Shown in pieces: positions 5,189 through 37,174 of a stretch of 64,000 nucleotides of DNA. Origin of the DNA: an uncultured bacterium (GTDB taxonomy: Bacteria > Patescibacteriota > Minisyncoccia > Phycocordibacterales > GWA1-40-21); the NCBI GenBank assembly GCA_903832855.1, contig CAILDB010000014.1:64144-128143 (forward strand). Direction: 5' to 3'. Under the pieces are notes generated by a model. The model had not been told where the DNA came from and did no database searches. It was given only the letters and a program-made list of their open reading frames with translations. A program made the translations under genes and the position numbers. The stretch's first letter is position 1, and each line of letters begins with the position of its first letter.

Positions 5189-6649
5189 ATGTCTGACAAA
5201 AAACTCTTCTACATAACTACTACTCTCGCATATGTAAATGCCGAAGCACATATGGGGCATGCTCTTGAATTTATTCGTGCGGATGTTATCGCCAGATACA
5301 AAAAACTTGAGGGTTTCGAAGTATTTTTTAATACTGGCTCGGATGAGCATGGGCAGAAACTTTATCAAAAAGCGCTTGAAGAGGGGAAGACACCAAAAGA
5401 GTTTACTAGTTTTTATGCCGATAAATTTAAAAAGCTTATGGGGCTTCTTGGTATTACGGAAGAAGAGGGAATTACAAGAAATTTCATCAGAACTACAGAC
5501 GAAAACCACATAAAATCAGCACAGGAATTTTGGAAAATTTGCGACAAAAACGGTTTTATTTACAAAAAGAATTATCAAGTGAAATATTGCGTGGGTTGTG
5601 AACTTGAAAAGACGGATTCGGACTTGGTAGATGGTAAATGCCCAGATCATCCGAACAGTGAGCTTGAAATCCGCGAGGAAGAAAATTATTTTTTCAAATT
5701 TTCCGCCTTCGGCGATAAACTTTTGAAACTTTACAAAGAAAATCCTACTTTTGTTATTCCCGATTTTAGATTTAATGAAATAAAAGCTTTTGTGGAAAGA
5801 GGTTTGCAGGATTTTAGTATTTCTCGTCTCAAATCCAAAATGCCTTGGGGGATAGAGGTACCAAACGACAGTGAACATATAATGTATGTTTGGTTTGATG
5901 CACTTGTAAACTATGTCACTGCTATCGGCTGGCCGGAAGATATGAAAAAGTATGAAAAATGGCAAGTGGAGACAGGTGGAATGGTGCAATACTGCGGAAA
6001 AGACAATCTTCGTCAGCAGTCTGCAATGTGGCAGGCAATGCTTATGGCTTGTGGCCTTTCAAATTCAAAAACAATTGTGATAGATGGTTTTGCAACGGGT
6101 CCGGGGGGGATAAAAATGAGTAAGTCGCTTGGCAATACTGTGAGTCCCGTTGAACTTGTAGAAAAATACAGCACAGATGCTTTGAGATATTTTGTTACGA
6201 GGGAACTCAGTACTTTTGAAGACAGTCCGGTATCTCCAGAAATTTTCAAAGAATCTTACAATGCAAATCTTGCAAATGGTCTGGGAAATCTTACGAGTAG
6301 AATTATGAAAATGGCAGAAACAAATTTGGATAAACCTGTGGAAATTTCAGAGAAAACAATTCCTCAAGAATTTTACGACTATCTTGAAAAATTTGAAATA
6401 CAAAAAGCCACAAATTTAATTTGGCAAAAGATTTCCGAGCTTGATAAATTGATTCAAACTGAGCAACCTTTTAAACTTGTAAAGACAGATAAAGAGAAGG
6501 GAATTGAGATTATTGTGTCTTTTGTCAAGGGCCTTGACACCATCGCCGAAATGCTAAATCCGATAATGCCTGAGACATCAAAGAAAATAAAAGAATTAGT
6601 AAAAACAAATAAATCTCCAGAGAGGCCACTATTTTTAAGGGTGGAATAA
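5189..6649 (+). CDS. metG: Methionyl-tRNA synthetase
   Basis: Class I HMGH (HIGH-type) motif near the N-terminus, KMSKS motif (KMSKSLGN), CxxC zinc knuckle. Confidence 0.9.
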   Translation: MSDKKLFYITTTLAYVNAEAHMGHALEFIRADVIARYKKLEGFEVFFNTGSDEHGQKLYQKALEEGKTPKEFTSFYADKFKKLMGLLGITEEEGITRNFIRTTDENHIKSAQEFWKICDKNGFIYKKNYQVKYCVGCELEKTDSDLVDGKCPDHPNSELEIREEENYFFKFSAFGDKLLKLYKENPTFVIPDFRFNEIKAFVERGLQDFSISRLKSKMPWGIEVPNDSEHIMYVWFDALVNYVTAIGWPEDMKKYEKWQVETGGMVQYCGKDNLRQQSAMWQAMLMACGLSNSKTIVIDGFATGPGGIKMSKSLGNTVSPVELVEKYSTDALRYFVTRELSTFEDSPVSPEIFKESYNANLANGLGNLTSRIMKMAETNLDKPVEISEKTIPQEFYDYLEKFEIQKATNLIWQKISELDKLIQTEQPFKLVKTDKEKGIEIIVSFVKGLDTIAEMLNPIMPETSKKIKELVKTNKSPERPLFLRVE

Positions 6650-6659
6650 GTAAATAATT

Positions 6660-7493
6660 ATGAAAAACACAAAAATTTCAATATTTGAAGGTCAAAAAAT
6701 AAGAAAAGTTTGGGATGATAAAGAAGAAAAATGGTATTTTTCGGTTACAGATGCGTGCGGTGCTCTTACAGAGAGTGTTGATGCTGGAGCATATTGGAGG
6801 AAACTTAAACAAAGGCTCATTGAAGAAGGAAGTGAGGTCGTGACATTTTGTCACGGACTGAAATTAGAGGCTTCTGATGGTAAAAAATATGAAACTGATT
6901 GTGCCGACACAGAAGGAATTTTTCGTATTATTCAATCAATTCCTTCACCAAAAGCTGAGCCCTTCAAGCGTTGGCTTGCTCGAGTAGGATACGAAAGAGT
7001 AGAAGAAACAAATGACCCAGAATTGGCTATCAACCGAGCGCTGAATACATATTTGAAAAAAGGATATAGTCCTGAATGGGTCAATCAGCGATTAAAAAGT
7101 ATTGAGATAAGAAAAGATTTGACTGATGAGTGGCGAAAAAGAGGAGTGAAAGAGGGTTTGGAATTTGCCTTGCTCACAGATGAAATTACTTTTGCTTGGG
7201 CAGGAATTAAAACAAAACAATACAAAGAGCACAAAGGATTGAAGGCGGAAAGTTTGCGAGATAATATGACTAATCTTGAACTGGTTTTAAATATGCTTGC
7301 GGAAACTGCGACTACAGAAATATCTAAAAAAGTTGAGCCGAAAGATTTTTTGGAAAATACAAGAGTGGCACAGCAGGGTGGGGGAATTGCTGGCAATGCT
7401 CGTAAAAATTTAGAGGAAAAACTTGGTAGGAGTGTTATAAACAAACAAAAATTCTTACCAAAGAAAAATATTAGGATAGGTAAGGGGAATTAA
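6660..7493 (+). CDS. dinD: DNA-damage-inducible protein D-like (BRO-N domain protein)
   Basis: N-terminal Bro-N-like segment (IFEGQKIRKVWDDKEEKWYFSVTDACGALT); C-terminal half alignable to E. coli DinD (HKGLKAESLRDNMTNLELVLNMLAETATTE). Confidence 0.55.
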   Translation: MKNTKISIFEGQKIRKVWDDKEEKWYFSVTDACGALTESVDAGAYWRKLKQRLIEEGSEVVTFCHGLKLEASDGKKYETDCADTEGIFRIIQSIPSPKAEPFKRWLARVGYERVEETNDPELAINRALNTYLKKGYSPEWVNQRLKSIEIRKDLTDEWRKRGVKEGLEFALLTDEITFAWAGIKTKQYKEHKGLKAESLRDNMTNLELVLNMLAETATTEISKKVEPKDFLENTRVAQQGGGIAGNARKNLEEKLGRSVINKQKFLPKKNIRIGKGN

Positions 7494-7498
7494 TAAAA

Positions 7499-7525
7499 GG
7501 CCCCCGAATGCAGCATTCGGGGGCC
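7499..7525 (+). terminator. Intrinsic terminator hairpin (12-bp GC stem) after dinD-like gene
   Basis: ggcccccgaatg-cag-cattcgggggcc followed by a T-rich run. Confidence 0.6.
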
Positions 7526-7538
7526 TTAATGTTTAGTT

Positions 7539-7563
7539 GTCATTCCGGCGAAGGCAGGAATCC
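7539..7563 (+). repeat. Family-1 palindromic repeat unit (GTCATTCC-N-GGAATCC hairpin), intergenic
   Basis: gtcattccggcgaaggcaggaatcc; 8-bp stem; same family as copies at 7571, 27044, 27104, 27181, 36688, 40872, 43601. Confidence 0.75.
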
Positions 7564-7570
7564 ATCTTTT

Positions 7571-7595
7571 GGATCCCGACCTGCGTCGGGATGAC
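7571..7595 (-). repeat. Family-1 palindromic repeat unit, inverted copy
   Basis: ggatcccgacctgcgtcgggatgac is the reverse complement of the 27181 copy (gtcatcccgacgcaggtcgggatcc). Confidence 0.75.
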
Positions 7596-7717
7596 AAAAA
7601 ATATAGTCATTTCATTCCTTATTTTTTTGTCAGTTATCCACAGCCCCTCTCTTTTTGCATTTGCACTCTTTTCCCTCAACATATATAATATACTCAATGA
7701 AACTAAAATTTTTTAAA

Positions 7718-7732
7718 TCTCTCTCTCTCTCT
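7718..7732 (+). repeat. (CT)7 dinucleotide tract between the signal-peptide start codon (7697) and the body of the surface-protein gene
   Basis: tctctctctctctct; ATG at 7697 is in frame 2 and the body is in frame 1; removing one CT unit fuses them. Confidence 0.7.
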
Positions 7733-7818
7733 ACTCTCTATTAACTCTTGCAATAATTACTAGCATTGTCGTCTTTGCCGGTTCTCTCACTCCCTCTGCC
7801 AATACCACTCAAGGTACA

Positions 7819-9186
7819 ATGTACACTCTCAACGACATCTACCACCTCATAGCAAACAACACCCTAGCAACCGAAGGATTAAATCATGAACTCTCCACCA
7901 CTTCTTCTCCCTCTGTACCCACCTCCCACTCTATATCTGAAATCTACGCTGCTCTAGCTAATCTCCCCACCCAAGACAAACTCAAACCAGATTCCACTTA
8001 TTTAGGTGTCTCCCAGTCAGGTTCTGCTCCCACTCCAACCACCTTTACTCCCGCATCTCTTACACCCTCAGGCTCACCTTCAATCACAGGCTATACTCTA
8101 AACGACATCTGGAACCTTGCTACTACAAGTGGCACCAGACTCACATCCCCAAGTTCTCACTCTCTTTCCACTACCTCAGCACCTACAGGTACAATGCACA
8201 CACTCAAAGAAATTTACCTTGCTTTAGTCGCATATGGAGATGCTCATAAATCTGATGTTCTAAATACCACAACTTACCTTGGAACATTAGGAACCTATGT
8301 CCCAACTCACACAGTTACTTTTGATGCTAATACGGGTACGGGGTCCATGTCTGCTCAAACAATTGCGGAAGGGGCCTCAGCTAATTTAACCTCCAACACC
8401 TTTACTAAAACAGGTAACAACTTTTCCGGTTGGGCCACAACTGCCGGCGGAGTTGTTGCTTATGCTGATGCCGCCAGCTATACCATGGGCTCATCGAATG
8501 TGACGCTGTATGCCAAGTGGGCTATAAATTACACAGTTACCTTTGATGCCAATACCGGCAGTGGTTCTATGTCTCCACAAACAATTGCGGAAGGGGCTTC
8601 AGCTAATCTGACGGCCAACACCTTTACCAAAACAGGTAACACCTTTGCGGGCTGGGCCACAACTGCCGGCGGAGATGTCGCCTATGCTGATACGGCCAGT
8701 TATACCATGGGCTCATCGAATGTGACGCTGTATGCCAAGTGGACAGCCGTAGTAGATGCTTGTGGCGTGAGTGGTGATGCAACGGATCTGGATTGTTGGT
8801 CTATGGGATCTCCGATCTCTATGGCTTGGGGGCCCAACCCATCATACCCTGGTGTTTCAACTGATATCGGTCTTTCAAACGGTAAAGCCAATACGGATGT
8901 TTTAATGGCAGCAGAATCTGCATATTCCGAGTCATATCCTGCCGCTCACTATTGCGCTACTTTAGACGATGGTACTCATCCTGTTGGTACGTGGTATCTG
9001 CCATCTTATGCTGAACTATGGGCTGGTTATGGCGCTGTCCCGGGATTTATGGGCGACGCTTATTGGTCTTCTACTGAGTGGTCACAAATGTCAGACACAT
9101 GCGCCTGGGCGTTGTACCCGGGCCTCAACGATATTTACGGCGCCAGTAAGGACACACCGCCGTACAATGTCCGTTGTCTCCGCTAG
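7819..9186 (+). CDS. Surface protein with tandem Listeria-Bacteroides (InlB B-type) repeats and C-terminal DUF1566 (Lcl-like) domain; probable true start at 7697 via CT-tract frameshift
   Basis: Two ~70-aa repeats TVTFDANTG.GSM..QTIAEGASANL...YAKW; C-terminus WYLPSYAELW...YWSST...NVRCLR; three YTLNDIY-type N-terminal repeats; GC-richer than neighbours. Confidence 0.7.
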   Translation: MYTLNDIYHLIANNTLATEGLNHELSTTSSPSVPTSHSISEIYAALANLPTQDKLKPDSTYLGVSQSGSAPTPTTFTPASLTPSGSPSITGYTLNDIWNLATTSGTRLTSPSSHSLSTTSAPTGTMHTLKEIYLALVAYGDAHKSDVLNTTTYLGTLGTYVPTHTVTFDANTGTGSMSAQTIAEGASANLTSNTFTKTGNNFSGWATTAGGVVAYADAASYTMGSSNVTLYAKWAINYTVTFDANTGSGSMSPQTIAEGASANLTANTFTKTGNTFAGWATTAGGDVAYADTASYTMGSSNVTLYAKWTAVVDACGVSGDATDLDCWSMGSPISMAWGPNPSYPGVSTDIGLSNGKANTDVLMAAESAYSESYPAAHYCATLDDGTHPVGTWYLPSYAELWAGYGAVPGFMGDAYWSSTEWSQMSDTCAWALYPGLNDIYGASKDTPPYNVRCLR

Positions 9187-29812: not shown

Positions 29813-30331
29813 GTGATTAAAAATAAAGAAATAAAAGTTAATAATAAAATGCAGACTGGTTATAAGTATAATCTGACTGCCAGAGAGGGTAAGGATTTTG
29901 ACTCACGCTTCAAGCCAGCTCTCACACCAAAGCAAATGCTAGCTCTAGGTGTATTTGGTGGGCGTTATTTGCGTGATTGCTGGTCCGAATATCCAGCGAG
30001 TTGGTTTGTAAAAGCAAAGTTTTATCCAGAAAATCTCCCTGGTCATGACAAGAAATTAAATTATTTTGGAGTGGATGCTTCAATGCCACTTTTTGTCTGG
30101 AAGAAAAAGGGTTGGATAAAACCCCAAGATCCTCGTGGTTGGTTTGAATGGTATTGCCGATATTTCTTTGGTCGCCGAACTGCTGATGATGACAGACAGA
30201 TAAAACGCTTTCTGGCTATGCGCCGTCATGTTAGCCAGCTCAAAAAGAACTGCCGTCCCGGTGATATTTTTTGCCGTCCCCGTCAACGCCAAGCTCTTCT
30301 TCACTGGGCTTATGACACTCGGAAGATGTAG
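29813..30331 (+). CDS. Hypothetical protein (GC-richer, basic, Trp-rich)
   Basis: ORF only; composition differs from neighbours. Confidence 0.35.
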   Translation: MIKNKEIKVNNKMQTGYKYNLTAREGKDFDSRFKPALTPKQMLALGVFGGRYLRDCWSEYPASWFVKAKFYPENLPGHDKKLNYFGVDASMPLFVWKKKGWIKPQDPRGWFEWYCRYFFGRRTADDDRQIKRFLAMRRHVSQLKKNCRPGDIFCRPRQRQALLHWAYDTRKM

Positions 30332-31563: not shown

Positions 31564-31638
31564 TCCCTAAAAGGAACAAAAAACAGTTTGAAATTCCAAG
31601 CTGTTTTTTGTTACATTTTGTGCTACCATTTAAGAAAT

Positions 31639-32742
31639 ATGGCAAACAAAAATCTTACAAACGCCAAAAAAGCAAAGAATGACGAGTTTTATACTCAGTA
31701 TTCTGATATTCAAAAAGAGATTGCAGCATATTTAGAATACAACCCAGATGTATTTCGCAACAAGGTAGTGTATTGCAATTGCGACGATCCTTTTGAGAGC
31801 AATTTCTTTCGCTATTTTGTGCTTAATTTCAACAAGCTTGGATTGAAACAACTTATCACTACCAGCTACAAACCCTCGCCCGTAGCGAACACACAACTGG
31901 GTTTGTTTGGTGATGATAAAACTCTTTCAAAATCAAAAGGCCGTCCAAAAGTAACCGCGAATAAATTTATTATAAATGAAGTTCGTGACATAGACGGCGA
32001 AGGCGAGTTCAACTTGAAGGATGTTGCAATGCAATTAAAGACAAACAAACACAATGAATGGACACCTCTTGAGAAAGAGGGCGATTTTAAAAGTCCTGAG
32101 TGCGTAAAATTACTGGAGCAATCCGACATAGTGGTAACTAATCCGCCGTTCAGTCTAACTCACGAATATGTTAAGCAACTTTTTGATTATAATAAAAAAT
32201 TTGTAATTATCATTAATAAAAGTGCTGTAACATATAAAGAAATTTTCCCATTGATTAGAGACAATAAAATGTGGTCTGGAAAAACAGGATGGTCCGGTGG
32301 TTTATGGTTTGTAACAATGGATGTCGATGATGTAGATAAGGTGATTGGTGGTGTTAATATGAAAAATACAGCTTCTGCTTGGTTTACAAATCTAGACCAT
32401 GGAAGACGCCATCAACCAATTCCACTTATGACAATGAAGGAAAATTTAAAATACAGCAAGCACAAAGAAATTAAAGGCAAAAAAGCGTATGATAAATATG
32501 TAAATTACGAGGCTATAGAAGTGCCGTTTACTGATGCCATTCCAAGCGATTATGATGGTACAATGGGTGTGCCAATTAGTTTTCTGGATAAATATAATCC
32601 TGAACAGTTTGAAATTATTGGAATGGCAGAAGATAATGGCAAAGGTTTTTCTGGTGGAATTTGGGATGGTAAAAATCCACATTGTGTTATAAATGGAGAG
32701 AATAAATTTAAGAGAATATTTATAAGACATAAGAAGAGATAG
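31639..32742 (+). CDS. Site-specific DNA methyltransferase (gamma-class N6-adenine); may start at TTG 31588
   Basis: DEFYTQ (HsdM-like motif) and VVTNPPFSL (motif IV NPPF). Confidence 0.7.
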   Translation: MANKNLTNAKKAKNDEFYTQYSDIQKEIAAYLEYNPDVFRNKVVYCNCDDPFESNFFRYFVLNFNKLGLKQLITTSYKPSPVANTQLGLFGDDKTLSKSKGRPKVTANKFIINEVRDIDGEGEFNLKDVAMQLKTNKHNEWTPLEKEGDFKSPECVKLLEQSDIVVTNPPFSLTHEYVKQLFDYNKKFVIIINKSAVTYKEIFPLIRDNKMWSGKTGWSGGLWFVTMDVDDVDKVIGGVNMKNTASAWFTNLDHGRRHQPIPLMTMKENLKYSKHKEIKGKKAYDKYVNYEAIEVPFTDAIPSDYDGTMGVPISFLDKYNPEQFEIIGMAEDNGKGFSGGIWDGKNPHCVINGENKFKRIFIRHKKR

Positions 32743-32743
32743 T

Positions 32744-33532
32744 ATGAAAAAAATAAATGTAATTACTCAAGATAAAGATAAAGATTTTATAAAAACTTTT
32801 CTAGAAAAAGAGAAAATTAATTTTGAAATTTTTGACGAAGTTGAATATAGTAATTCAAATAAATTTTCAGATGAAATTAAAAATAACGACCTGAATTTTT
32901 TGAAGAAGGGTAATTTTAATGCTCAAATTTTTCAGTCAGTTGACGAAAATATTTCCACGAGACTTCTAATTCCTAATAGTTCTTCAGATAAGAAGGATTG
33001 GCAAAAAGAGTACGACCTTTATCACGAATTGGGGCATTATTATTCAATGGAAAAAGATTTAATATGTAAATATTATAGTTTTTTAGAAAATAATGCTGTT
33101 TTAAAGGGTGAATTATTTAATCTTCCTTTTGAAGTTGAAGCAGAAAAATATGTATTTGAAAAATATAAAGAATTTTTTGAAAAAAATGCAAATGAAGTTT
33201 ATTTAAAATATTTGAGTCAAATAGGTAATCAACTTTGCTTAATAAACGAGGAAACGATTAAAAATCATAGTAATTTTTATGGAATTTATGAAATAAGGTT
33301 GTTTAGATATAACTGTATTATTGAAAATATTTGTGATAATCAATGTGAATTTTACAAAAAACACAAGAATAATATTAATGAGATTAAAAATAGATTAGAA
33401 AGCAAGGGAAAATTATTTTTTGAAATAAATAAAAAGGTTGATGTATTAGACAACTCGCTAAAAGAAGATTTTTATAAAAATAATGATTTTGAAAAATATT
33501 CAAGTGAATGTAAATTAATTTATGAAAAATAA
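32744..33532 (+). CDS. Hypothetical protein with HExxH motif (putative metallopeptidase-like), very AT-rich
   Basis: YHELGHYYS; translationally coupled to the MTase (2-nt gap). Confidence 0.35.
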   Translation: MKKINVITQDKDKDFIKTFLEKEKINFEIFDEVEYSNSNKFSDEIKNNDLNFLKKGNFNAQIFQSVDENISTRLLIPNSSSDKKDWQKEYDLYHELGHYYSMEKDLICKYYSFLENNAVLKGELFNLPFEVEAEKYVFEKYKEFFEKNANEVYLKYLSQIGNQLCLINEETIKNHSNFYGIYEIRLFRYNCIIENICDNQCEFYKKHKNNINEIKNRLESKGKLFFEINKKVDVLDNSLKEDFYKNNDFEKYSSECKLIYEK

Positions 33533-33557
33533 AAATTAATAAATAAAAAGAAATATT

Positions 33558-34721
33558 ATGAAAACAACTTTAAAAAACAACATCACTGTCAAAGATATTT
33601 GCGAAGGGTTCGTCTATAACGAACTGGAGGGTAAGGGTCTATTTGGTTTATCTGGCAAGCTCACTATTCAGCCGGAATATCAGCGTAACTATATTTATGC
33701 GGAAGAAGGAAAAGAGTCGGCGGTTATTGATTCGATTTTAAAAGGGTATCCGCTTGGTTTGATTTACTTCCATAAAGTTAATAGCGATACTTTCGAAGTT
33801 TTAGATGGGCAACAGCGCATCACTAGTATCGGACGTTTTGTTAATGATAAATTTGCCATTAGGGATGAAAATGGGTTGCAACAAAATTTTAGCGGTATGG
33901 CAAAGGACAAAAAAATTAAGATTTGGGAGACGAAGTTACTAATTTACGAGTGCGAAGGTGAAGAAAGCGAGATAAAAGATTGGTTTAAAACGATTAATAT
34001 TGCTGGAATTCCACTTAGGAATCAGGAATTACTTAACGCAGTTTATTCTGGGCCGTTTGTTACATTAGCAAGAGAGGAATTCAGTAATCGTCAAAATGCG
34101 AACATTCAGAAATGGAGTGCGTATATATCAGGCAGTGCAAACCGTCAAGATTTTTTTGAGCGCGCACTTGAATGGGTAAGTAAAGGAAATATTGAGGGTT
34201 ATATGACACTTCATCGCCACGATAAAAACATCACTGAACTAAAGGAATATTTTAACAGTGTGGTTGATTGGGCTTCTTGTGTATTTACTGATGTGGAAAG
34301 CGAGATGCGCGGACTCGAGTGGGGAAGGTTATATGAGGAATATCATAAAAAATCATACAATCCAAAAAAAGTTTCAGAAGAGGTGCAAAAACTTTATGGC
34401 GATCCGTACATCAAAAATCGTAAAGGAGTATTTGAATATATTTTGGGGGGATCTAACGATACAAAATTGCTTGATGTCCGAGTATTTGACGATGCGACTA
34501 AAAATGTAGTGTATAAAAAACAGACCACTGAGGCTGAAAAGAAAGGGAAGTCAAACTGTTCACACTGTGCTATTGGACACGATGCTAACAAGAGTAAGAT
34601 TTGGAATTTGAGCGAAATGGATGCCGACCATGTAGCATCTTGGAGTAAGGGTGGAAAAACTTCTATAAAAAATTGTGAGATGTTGTGTAAGACACATAAT
34701 CGAGCAAAAGGAAATCGGTAA
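33558..34721 (+). CDS. DUF262 (ParB/GmrS-like, DGQQR) + C-terminal HNH endonuclease: GmrSD/SspE-like nuclease
   Basis: N-terminal IQPEYQRNY...LDGQQR; C-terminal CSHCAIGHD...[12 protein letters not shown]...CKTHN (HNH). Confidence 0.7.
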
Positions 34722-35026
34722 TAGAAAAAGTTGCAGTGGAAAATATATGGTTTAACAGAGGAAAGAATAATTTAATTTATAAAAAGAAGATATAATAAAC
34801 AATATGGAAAGAATGAATTTCAATCAAATATTTATTGTTCACTCTGATGGATCTATTGAACCACGTTTTCCCGTTCGAGTGGGTGGAGTATCTTTTGGCC
34901 CAGGCGTTCGATTCGGTAAAGGCGTATCTTTTTCCGGGATAGATTTCTCTCTTTTTATGGGTAAAGAATTTCAAGTTAGAAGAGAGGGACAAATTATAAA
35001 TATTTTAGGGGTTTATCAATAAAAAT

Positions 35027-35371
35027 ATGAAAGATAACGAGGAGAATTTAATAAAAGAAAAATATTTTAAGGTTATTACCTTGGCAGTCACTGAAGCCAA
35101 AGCATATACTGATGAAAAATTAAAATCCATAAGTTGGCTAATGGTCGGTGTTGTTATAGTATGCTTTCTTGCTTTTATCCAACTTGTTGTTGATTCATTT
35201 CATGTTAATAACGCGACATATAGAGAATATTCACAGAAAACCGAAACAACTGAAATAACACAAAATACAAACAAAGTTTTATTAAAAAAAATTCAAGATT
35301 TGGCAGAACAGAATAATAAAAATCAGGAAATCATTATTGAATTACAAAAACAACTTTTAAACAAAAAATAA
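35027..35371 (+). CDS. Small membrane protein with coiled-coil C-terminus, hypothetical
   Basis: One TM (WLMVGVVIVCFLAFIQLVV) then Lys/Gln/Glu-rich helix; 3-nt gap to the protease gene. Confidence 0.35.
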   Translation: MKDNEENLIKEKYFKVITLAVTEAKAYTDEKLKSISWLMVGVVIVCFLAFIQLVVDSFHVNNATYREYSQKTETTEITQNTNKVLLKKIQDLAEQNNKNQEIIIELQKQLLNKK

Positions 35372-35374
35372 TTT

Positions 35375-36064
35375 ATGTTAGCTGCTATTTTTCAAGCATC
35401 ATATAATTCTTCATATGATAAAATAATCGGTGGTGTTCGTGGTACAGCATTTTTTGTTGACGGAAAAAAAGCCCTTACTGCGAATCATCTTCTTAATTTT
35501 AATAACTTCAAACCAAATGACGGTTTTTTATATTGTAAATTTTGGCTTCTACTAGAAAATGGTCAGATTTTAACAATTAAAAAGGATTATTTAAAAAGTC
35601 ACCCTGATGTTGATACAACTATAATTTGTTTTCCGGTAATGGTTTATAAAGATTCCTTAAATTTTAAAACTATCATTGCAAAAAGGGGCGATAAATTTAT
35701 TTTAAAAGGATTTTTAGCATCTGTTGAAGGAAACCCAAAACCCAAAATAACTTTGAGCTGGAATAATCAAGGAGAATTAATTGTAAGTAATTTTGATTTG
35801 AGTTTAATCATTTCTTTACAGGAAGGTTCTATTATAGAAGTAAAAAATATTTCTTTAGATAAACCCGATGTAAAAGTTGATAATAAGAAATATATAACAC
35901 TTTCATGTGGTGGAAGTAAGGGATTGTCGGGTGCGCCTTTAGTAAAATCTGATACTGGTGAAATTATGGGTCTTATGTCTTATGGACTACCTGAAGATGT
36001 AACTTATAAGAAAGAATTATTTGCAATATCAATTGATGAAATAGAAAAAGAAATATTTAAATAA
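35375..36064 (+). CDS. Trypsin-like (S1/Trypsin_2) serine protease, cytoplasmic
   Basis: Catalytic His (ALTANHLL), Asp (HPDVDTTII), Ser (GGSKGLSGAPL); no signal peptide. Confidence 0.55.
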   Translation: MLAAIFQASYNSSYDKIIGGVRGTAFFVDGKKALTANHLLNFNNFKPNDGFLYCKFWLLLENGQILTIKKDYLKSHPDVDTTIICFPVMVYKDSLNFKTIIAKRGDKFILKGFLASVEGNPKPKITLSWNNQGELIVSNFDLSLIISLQEGSIIEVKNISLDKPDVKVDNKKYITLSCGGSKGLSGAPLVKSDTGEIMGLMSYGLPEDVTYKKELFAISIDEIEKEIFK

Positions 36065-36188: not shown

Positions 36189-36638
36189 ATGTCTCATCAT
36201 AACGGGAACAATCTTCCACTTATAATTGTTTTGTGCATTTTATTCCCAGGGCTTGCTATGGCTGTGGGTGCTGGCTTTATTTTTCTTTGGATACTTAAAA
36301 TACTTTTCTATGTTTTGCTTATAATTATTTATCTCATCTACACTTACTTTTGGCCAGTCCTTATAGTTGCTGTGGTTATTTTCTTTTTCTATGCTTTAAG
36401 AAAGAAGCAGATTCCAAAAACAACAGATAAAAAAAAGGATAGTAGGGAATTAATAGAGTCAGATAAATATGTGGCAGAGGACTATTCTTGGGGTGAAAAA
36501 AGTAGTGAGGATGAAGAGATTTATGATCTGATGGAAAATCATAATCTTGATCGTGATGAAGCAGAACATGTAAAAGAAATTATGGACGATGAAGGTCTTG
36601 ATGAAGATGAAGCGGTAGAATTGAAGGATGAATTATAG
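36189..36638 (+). CDS. Membrane protein with two TM helices and acidic C-terminal tail, hypothetical
   Basis: ORF plus hydrophobic segments; family-1 repeat follows the stop codon. Confidence 0.35.
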   Translation: MSHHNGNNLPLIIVLCILFPGLAMAVGAGFIFLWILKILFYVLLIIIYLIYTYFWPVLIVAVVIFFFYALRKKQIPKTTDKKKDSRELIESDKYVAEDYSWGEKSSEDEEIYDLMENHNLDRDEAEHVKEIMDDEGLDEDEAVELKDEL

Positions 36639-36883: not shown

Positions 36884-37174
36884 ATGGAATTAGGTAAATT
36901 TATACAACAAAATAGCGAACCAAAAGAGAAAGAAAAAATCAAAATGTTTATTTGTGGGGAATGCAAGACAGCGTCAGATGTTTGTTATGATAGTAAGGGA
37001 GGATATTGTCATGAGGATATTTACTGTTGCCAAAAATGTAAAAGTTATTTTGTTGTTGGTGCAATTTGTGACAAATGTAATAGTACGCATAGCCGATCAT
37101 ATGGGTGTAATAACTCGAAATGTGATTGTGAGGACTATCATTACAATCACGAAACAGAAGAGGTCGAAGTATAA
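36884..37174 (+). CDS. Cys-rich small protein (16 Cys in 96 aa), hypothetical
   Basis: Multiple CxxC/CC motifs; preceded by an AT-rich region with the palindrome tagtaact...agttacta. Confidence 0.4.
   Translation: MELGKFIQQNSEPKEKEKIKMFICGECKTASDVCYDSKGGYCHEDIYCCQKCKSYFVVGAICDKCNSTHSRSYGCNNSKCDCEDYHYNHETEEVEV

Follow-up and report, generated by a model that had tools for sequence, protein, structure and literature searches.

The nesting of accessory defense genes inside other defense operons is established for type I restriction-modification (RM) loci, which carry PrrC or TgvAB, and for Hma, BREX, and DISARM (10.1101/2024.04.04.588119; 10.1101/2024.01.29.577857; PMC3710099). PrrC is embedded in EcoprrI, TgvAB in type I RM, and the HECs in Hma, BREX, and DISARM as well as in type I RM (Payne et al., 10.1101/2024.01.29.577857; PMC3710099). 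The locus described here comes from an uncultured Patescibacteriota bacterium (GenBank assembly GCA_903832855.1, contig CAILDB010000014.1, positions 64,144–128,143), and the whole 64,000 nucleotide (nt) stretch analyzed is called the window. Six tightly packed plus-strand genes are found at 31.5–36.1 kb, and all those described in a first-pass annotation of this DNA are present. They are labeled M (DNA methyltransferase, MTase), B (gene of a HExxH protein), C (nuclease, the R of the pair), and D-E-F (three genes 3′ of C). The region is probably an RM module that serves as a docking site and carries two independent accessory cargo units, B and D-E-F. The features are as follows.

31575..31612, plus strand: terminator-like hairpin, the 5′ boundary of the RM operon, which ends the upstream gene and covers the TTG at 31588
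31639..32742, plus strand: M, N6-adenine DNA methyltransferase of the EcoRI family (PF13651, PADLOC MTase_II)
32723..32753, plus strand: upstream copy of the repeat at the junction (stop codon of the MTase, a 1-nt spacer, ATG that opens the first cargo gene)
32744..33532, plus strand: B, cargo gene for a putative Zn-metallopeptidase of 262 amino acids (aa), HELGH at 94–98, N-terminal alpha/beta domain
33537..33567, plus strand: downstream copy of the junction repeat, running into the nuclease start and aligning in register with 32723–32753
33558..34721, plus strand: C, DUF262 (ParB-like, DGQQR) plus HNH, predicted restriction endonuclease of 387 aa (REase_II, GmrSD_N, HNH)
34804..35022, plus strand: D, small Gly-rich soluble protein of 72 aa, first gene of the D-E-F cassette
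35027..35371, plus strand: E, single-pass membrane protein by hydropathy, with a coiled-coil-like tail
35375..36064, plus strand: F, predicted leaderless trypsin-fold serine protease of 229 aa, H38/D80/S185

The open reading frame (ORF) 31588–32742 matches PF13651 (EcoRI_methylase, E-value = 9.6e-112) and PADLOC MTase_II (PDLC03297, 1.2e-96). The catalytic motif NPPF and the DEFYT motif, which the first-pass annotation had pointed out, are kept in 64/64 orthologues. The start codon given there, the ORF-finder TTG at 31588, falls within the hairpin at 31575–31612. The N-terminus MANxNL, which begins at ATG 31639, is conserved in M orthologues. Thus the true start of M is probably 31639 and not 31588.

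C displays a GmrSD_N/DUF262 domain (5.5e-22) and a classical HNH domain (PF01844, 1.9e-6), and its DGQQR motif is invariant (64/64). Residues 6–386 align with positions 5–371 of the 372 position PADLOC model REase_II PDLC03418 (1.4e-85). The DUF262 plus HNH assignment made earlier therefore stands, but the placement of C in the GmrSD/SspE type does not. The only HNH matches are to PF01844 and PF14279, and no DUF1524 (PF07510) is found in C at E ≤ 0.1; because this domain is lacking, C is not of GmrSD/SspE architecture.

Relatives of C were sought in a scan that took one genome for each GTDB species. At least 599 stretches matched and at least 541 encode a relative, and the best 80 of the latter were kept as loci. 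The 80 kept relatives show 77–87% identity and come from Patescibacteria, Chloroflexota, Omnitrophota, Bacteroidota, Proteobacteria, and other groups. An EcoRI-family MTase is present upstream of the nuclease in 74 of the 80. In four of the six remaining loci there is at most 738 nt of sequence 5′ of the nuclease, and in another, L062, the 2.6 kb upstream consists entirely of cargo up to the contig end. The sixth, L023, is the sole clear orphan nuclease among the 80 kept loci; here RhuM and the nuclease (L023:3405-5623, a Saganbacteria metagenome-assembled genome) are set between UbiD-like and radical-SAM genes.

The distance from the M stop to the C start, taken over 79 related loci, is bimodal: −4 to +4 nt in 46, 540 nt or more in 33, and no intermediate values. 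The stop/start overlap or 1-nt spacing suggests translational coupling of M and C. Cultured bacteria carry the plain pair as well: plasmids of Enterococcus faecium (65% identity) and Moraxella osloensis (67%) encode it under the labels 'EcoRI family methyltransferase' and either 'DUF262 protein' or 'hypothetical protein'. By gene organization and the REBASE-derived models, M and C form an ordinary, mobile type II-like RM pair. The earlier view that a MTase, a HExxH protein, and a nuclease make up a non-standard layout is not borne out, given the abutting genes, the full-length type II models, and the plain plasmid pairs; at the level of gene organization this is a conventional RM pair. M would mark host DNA, and C would cut DNA that is left unmarked.

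A different reading makes C a type IV, modification-dependent nuclease similar to GmrSD, BrxU, or SspE, with M acting independently or protecting in some other way. DUF262 with DGQQR is typical of type IV enzymes (PMC4619093), C shows weak PADLOC matches to HEC-05/06 and NsnA, conservation is higher in the nuclease than in the MTase, and L023 has no MTase nearby. BrxU (7p9k) aligns weakly, with residues 37–78 of C only (E = 0.48). Set against this are the missing DUF1524 domain, a full-length REase_II match (1e-85) far above any type IV-like match, and, in almost every informative locus, a MTase gene immediately upstream whose stop codon overlaps the nuclease start. The near-obligate linkage to a MTase argues against modification-dependent cutting, and a type IV assignment is distinctly unlikely.

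Palindrome avoidance was considered as a guide to the recognition site. Four 4-bp palindromes are strongly under-represented in the whole window, with observed/expected ratios of 0.20 (ACGT), 0.46 (TCGA), 0.54 (GATC), and 0.55 (CATG), and ACGT is the lowest across the 80 related loci as well (0.67). None of the four is assignable to this system, and AATT and GAATTC are not avoided.

The M-C junction is a recurrent insertion slot for foreign defense genes, and B sits precisely there. The slot is occupied in 28 of 74 nuclease-seeded loci (38%), in addition to the loci found via B, and in 33 of the 79 related loci it holds 1–4 co-oriented cargo ORFs. At least 20 unrelated cargo families are represented, all in the M-R orientation. 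Those identified include RhuM (11 ORFs), T5orf172/MUG113 (9), and Fic (4), and further Bro-N, HEPN_AbiU2, PIN_8, an AAA_15 plus OLD-Toprim protein, AntA, and DUF2130. Many slot families gave no match, several of them having none in Pfam or PADLOC. In L082 (4868-7689) the slot carries a full minimal cyclic-oligonucleotide-based antiphage signaling system (CBASS; CD-NTase, 3.6e-85, and an effector with two transmembrane (TM) segments) plus a Fic gene. An Old-family nuclease is situated in the slot of L033 (6109-7938), and in L078 an Old gene 81% identical to that copy lies directly 3′ of the nuclease. In 7 of 75 loci, members of slot families flank the nuclease directly on its 3′ side. The 3′ flank of the nuclease is therefore a second docking position, and in the window D-E-F stands there.

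The start of a short ORF, MKIELHLVYISLA..., is conserved right after the MTase stop in L070, L072, and L030. The cargo of these loci differs, being Fic in two and RhuM in one. The short ORF may be a leader peptide or the leftover of an earlier cassette.

Four lineages have B in the slot: the window, L106-108 (81% identity), L001/2, where three more cargo genes accompany it, and L004-6, where a TM protein does. B also occurs away from this nuclease. On the contig of P0006 (genes 5916-8789), a B homologue follows Vsr and is divergent from a C5 DNA methylase. That methylase is fused to LexA DNA-binding and S24 peptidase domains, an unusual fusion of a self-cleaving repressor with a MTase.

One may ask whether M, B, and C instead depend on one another as an obligate three-component system, with the HExxH protein as an essential subunit or a controller. 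M and B are tightly spaced (1 nt), as are B and C (25 nt), and the order M-B-C recurs in L106-108. However, in 46 of 79 loci nothing is inserted between M and C, the cargo, where present, is mostly something other than B, and B is found without this nuclease. The base composition of B is also far from that of both neighbors: its GC content is 21.8%, against 35.1% and 37.6% for the genes on either side and 38% for the window, with a sharp break at the B borders. Synteny largely refutes the three-component reading, which is very improbable. Co-occurrence of the HExxH gene with DUF262-HNH genes, raised in the first-pass annotation, is thus seen in four lineages, but B is an optional insert, one of at least 20 interchangeable cargo families.

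Cargo boundaries coincide with a repeat. In the window it is 31 nt long and imperfect. In 16 loci, whose cargo belongs to several unrelated families, the leading cargo gene begins exactly 1 nt past the MTase stop (TAA-T-ATG), which is the position of the nuclease start in unoccupied loci. The 16 nt 5′ of the nuclease ATG match the 3′ junction of the locus's own MTase at 9.6/16 positions, as against 5.6/16 for other gene starts (Mann-Whitney p = 1e-11). When the two junctions are aligned locally, 26 of 30 cargo-bearing loci score above the 95th percentile of distance-matched controls, and 18 of the 30 score above the 99th. L070 shows a perfect 24 nt repeat and L050 a 22/23 repeat. In L043 a 55-nt direct repeat (~87% identical) lies at ~1250-1300 and ~2240-2300, on either side of RhuM cargo. 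It takes in the first ~16 nuclease codons, so that a 5′ fragment of the nuclease gene is duplicated right after the MTase stop.

A stronger version of the docking idea can be put forward tentatively, although it is on balance doubtful: that the M-R stop/start junction is a dedicated, nucleotide-precise cassette acquisition site, with B and D-E-F as new RM-guard modules. A core of roughly AAGAAAAAATAAT joined to ATGAAAAC would be duplicated upon insertion. A minimal type II RM system would in this way capture and swap whole defense genes, with coupling relayed from M to the cargo and from the cargo to R. B, as a near-orphan zincin-like protease, and D-E-F would fire once a phage disables the RM enzymes.

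The earlier description of B as an extremely AT-rich gene with a HExxH motif is confirmed. The family is very small, with 7 matches in 5.8 billion proteins and 9 clusters in a profile search of 1.84 billion representatives, which joined B to no larger family. Neither B nor F was found in plasmid, phage, and IMG/VR collections. Among the 12 sequences of the B family, H94, E95, G97, H98, P128, E130, A133, and E134 are invariant. The resulting pattern, HExGH...PxExxAE, corresponds to HExxH plus a Glu, as in gluzincins. The PADLOC capP model is matched by 9 of the 12 members, weakly (best 1.7e-4), and every other Pfam or PADLOC family is matched by at most two; at E ≤ 1 no Pfam family recurs consistently among the members. 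The AlphaFold (AF2) model of B is confident, with a mean predicted local distance difference test score (pLDDT) of 86 and a predicted template modeling score (pTM) of 0.82, and it consists of an N-terminal alpha/beta domain and a helical body. Foldseek searches of the PDB and BFVD with this model gave nothing significant. The top non-significant PDB neighbor is the anthrax lethal factor N-domain, and the few annotated neighbors near the top of the BFVD list are 'Peptidase' and 'Lethal factor' (E 0.03-1.4); these annotated neighbors share a zincin theme. No helix-turn-helix (HTH) gene is present beside B in the window or in the M-B-C loci, the window neighbors being the MTase and the nuclease. 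B is a putative Zn-metallopeptidase that most likely acts like CapP, ImmA, or IrrE; it is not assigned to that family.

The second cargo unit lies 3′ of C. The first-pass annotation described a TM protein and a protease as a pair immediately downstream of the nuclease. The 3-nt gap between E and F is as described, but D (34804-35022) had been overlooked and lies between the nuclease and E. Because D is conserved there, the unit is D-E-F. D homologues, 54–58% identical, are found in the same position in L089/L097 and L102. E shows one strongly hydrophobic segment (~residues 37–55) and a heptad-like C-terminal tail. Its homologue in L102 is 44% identical over 86 aligned residues (BLASTP, 1e-15) and 41% over the whole MAFFT alignment, and elsewhere small TM proteins that are not homologous to E stand at this position. 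Co-occurrence of the membrane protein with the protease, anticipated earlier, is thus found in L102, where F is 58% identical. A weak match of E to ZorB (5e-4) was set aside as TM/coiled-coil noise; E has no OmpA-like domain and no ZorA gene is nearby.

F scores 27.0 bits against Trypsin_2, where the gathering score is 27.6, and most of its homologues carry PF13365 in a precomputed table. The catalytic triad H38/D80/S185 is invariant in 15 homologues. F displays no N-terminal hydrophobic stretch or TM segment by hydropathy (maximum over 19 residues 1.23) and no PDZ match. The first-pass proposal of a leaderless, cytoplasmic protease that is not HtrA-like agrees with these results. Homologues of F are rare (16 in 5.8 billion proteins) and occur in the following contexts.

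L089/90/97: type III mod-D-TM134-F-res
L102: type III mod-D-E-F-WYL-NYN-res, with D 58%, E 44%, and F 58% identical to the window
L093/101: mod-ZnR99-TM135-F-WYL-NYN-res-GmrSD
L100: 86aa-159aa-F-res
L091: type I hsdM-hsdS-HNH170-F-hsdR
L092: as L091, with RhuM
L087: ABC-type ATPase-F, beside an integrase
L098, L099: F-PD-(D/E)XK
L094: frameshifted copy

Of 11 distinct contexts, seven fall within an RM operon or directly beside one. The conserved D-E-F triple, together with these RM contexts, shows that D-E-F is a genuine cassette; as judged from the gene orders, F is constant and its partners are exchangeable. In L094 (6001-6695) the F homologue is split by a frameshift into ORFs of 190 aa and 53 aa. 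It is a probable pseudogene, and the split shows decay of the cassette. A Trypsin_2 gene in the slot of L001 was rejected as a case of F co-occurrence, its sequence being unrelated to F.

That F is a housekeeping quality-control protease similar to HtrA, in this neighborhood by coincidence, is extremely unlikely. The Trypsin_2 match and the DegP/DegS fold neighbors of F would fit such a role. The missing signal peptide, TM segment (both by hydropathy), and PDZ domain do not, nor do the small number of homologues and the frequency of RM contexts.

The main rival concerns the role of the cargo: B and F may regulate the RM system itself (restriction alleviation or anti-autoimmunity) and not be independent effectors. 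They would then degrade the R subunit or a repressor upon DNA damage or when host sites are unmodified. B is CapP-like, and CapP, like IrrE and ImmA, is a regulatory peptidase activated by damage (10.1101/2022.04.27.489752; PMC12828697). F is located upstream of hsdR or res in type I and type III loci, directly so in L089/L090/L097, L091, L092, and L100; WYL and NYN genes lie between F and res in L093/L101 and L102. The alleviation of EcoKI restriction via ClpXP (PMC11109961) also counts for such a role. However, no HTH substrate gene is adjacent, the other slot occupants are toxins or full defense systems, and F is also found outside RM, with ABC-type ATPase or PD-(D/E)XK genes. A regulatory role is possible but rather unlikely.

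The reading preferred here is that of an RM module with independent cargo, B and D-E-F being expressed alongside the RM genes as separate modules. The companions of this cargo are single-gene toxins and complete abortive-infection systems, and for this reason B and D-E-F are favored as second-line conditional proteases. B would be a conditional Zn-metallopeptidase, either a second-line (abortive-infection) effector or a regulator triggered by damage or infection. F, as a cytoplasmic protease, would most likely activate or release a variable partner by proteolysis; the partner would be a small membrane protein in the window and the type III RM loci, and a HNH protein in the type I RM loci. Such activation would resemble that in the trypsin-MBL (metallo-beta-lactamase) and gasdermin systems (10.1101/2025.09.03.673762; PMC10312443). 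The NTPase/nuclease of the adjacent RM system would be the first line and possibly the trigger. By analogy with PrrC, the signal for D-E-F might be failure of RM (PMC12707154; PMC3710099).

Several observations weigh against this reading. For the RM module, the nuclease of L023 has no MTase in 4.4 kb upstream, and a literature search found no paper on this M-R pair. In 64 orthologous pairs the mean pairwise identity is 82% for the nuclease and 64% for the MTase. The MTase shows hypervariable blocks at residues ~221-240 and ~321-360, and the nuclease shows none in the same 64 pairs. Such divergence is unusual if both enzymes must read one site. For the slot, the repeat at the junction is rich in A and low in complexity, and convergent translation-initiation signals could contribute to it in part. 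For B, no significant match was found in Pfam, NCBIfam, PHROG, or PDB sequences, even with the family profile; the capP matches are weak and no HTH partner is adjacent. B is also present in two loci with no visible RM system (L003, L096). For D-E-F, the cassette begins 82 nt past the nuclease, and joint transcription with C is a supposition. The AF2 model of F is poor (pLDDT 51). Foldseek with this model gave only Spl and Deg/HtrA proteases of the PA clan at E ≤ 0.001, and because the model is poor these matches serve only as a consistency check.

The surroundings agree with the defense island context proposed in the first-pass annotation, with AbiEi/AbiEii, a HTH-GHKL-DUF4325 gene, and an IMS/DinB polymerase present as neighbors. 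No tRNA or Rfam feature marks the island. A palindrome similar to repetitive extragenic palindromic (REP) elements, GTCATTCC-N10-GGAATCC, has 10 matches in the window as against 1.4 expected, with copies as follows.

7539, 7571, 27044, 27181, 36688, 40872, 43601: REP-like element

The copies at 27.04 and 36.69 kb are inverted and bracket the AbiE-RM-DEF stretch. They were rejected as island ends, the element being dispersed through the window. Several copies are situated within ORFs, e.g. in the C-terminal part of a 1181-aa protein and in a 475-aa flavoprotein.

Two ORFs after F encode a multi-TM protein with a highly acidic tail (36189-36638) and a Cys-rich 96-aa protein (36884-37174); homologues of these were found in none of the related loci examined. 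On the 5′ side, the ORF 29813-30331 (172 aa) has no family match. Its homologues in L012 and L084 are 54–57% identical and lie 6–8 kb downstream of the nuclease, by linkage or by chance.

The embedding logic is seen here in the smallest possible host, a two-gene RM system, with 38% slot occupancy and cassette-like boundaries. It offers a cheap 'guilt-by-embedding' route to new defense genes in Patescibacteria (candidate phyla radiation, CPR) and other uncultured lineages. B and D-E-F are singled out as candidates, and their predicted protease chemistry is easily tested. A question is raised as to the mechanism by which one junction takes up cargo when no recombinase is obvious.

Comparison with known systems separates shared from distinct properties. 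C shares with GmrSD, BrxU, and SspE an N-terminal DUF262 with DGQQR and a C-terminal His-Me finger nuclease. It differs by a PF01844 HNH in place of DUF1524, half the size, and the near-obligate MTase link. B and the CapP/ImmA/IrrE peptidases (M78, COG2856) have in common the HExxH motif with a Glu motif ~35 residues on and an association with immune operons, and the capP matches of the B family are consistent though weak. However, B has no Pfam M78 match, no adjacent HTH substrate of the CapH/ImmR/DdrO kind, and no significant structural match, and its N-terminal alpha/beta domain and long helical C-terminus are distinct. F differs from HtrA/DegP in lacking a signal peptide or membrane anchor, by hydropathy, and a PDZ domain. 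The trypsin-MBL (10.1101/2025.09.03.673762) and gasdermin-protease (PMC10312443) systems likewise place a trypsin-fold protease beside a putative effector in a defense context, but D-E-F carries no MBL, gasdermin, or fused sensor domain, and its partners are small and variable.

M and C resemble type II RM in their adjacent, co-oriented genes with stop/start coupling, their full-length model matches, and their mobility across phyla and on plasmids. The differences are the union in C of a ParB-like, NTPase-type DUF262 with HNH, uncommon among type II enzymes, and a MTase that varies far more than the nuclease. As in PrrC-like guards, the genes are nested in the same orientation, B between M and R, and F between mod and res or, in type I loci, between hsdS and hsdR. 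B and D-E-F were not found among the named embedded families. As in the embedded systems, accessory toxins and defense systems are nested co-oriented in an RM operon, and RhuM, Fic, HEPN, and OLD recur. Here, however, the cargo is hosted by a minimal type II-like pair of two genes (F homologues also by type III RM), and a single nucleotide-precise junction is used and is repeated on both sides of the cargo. Apparently new are the minimal type II-like host, or a type III host for F, the precise, repeat-flanked junction, and the two uncharacterized cargo units.

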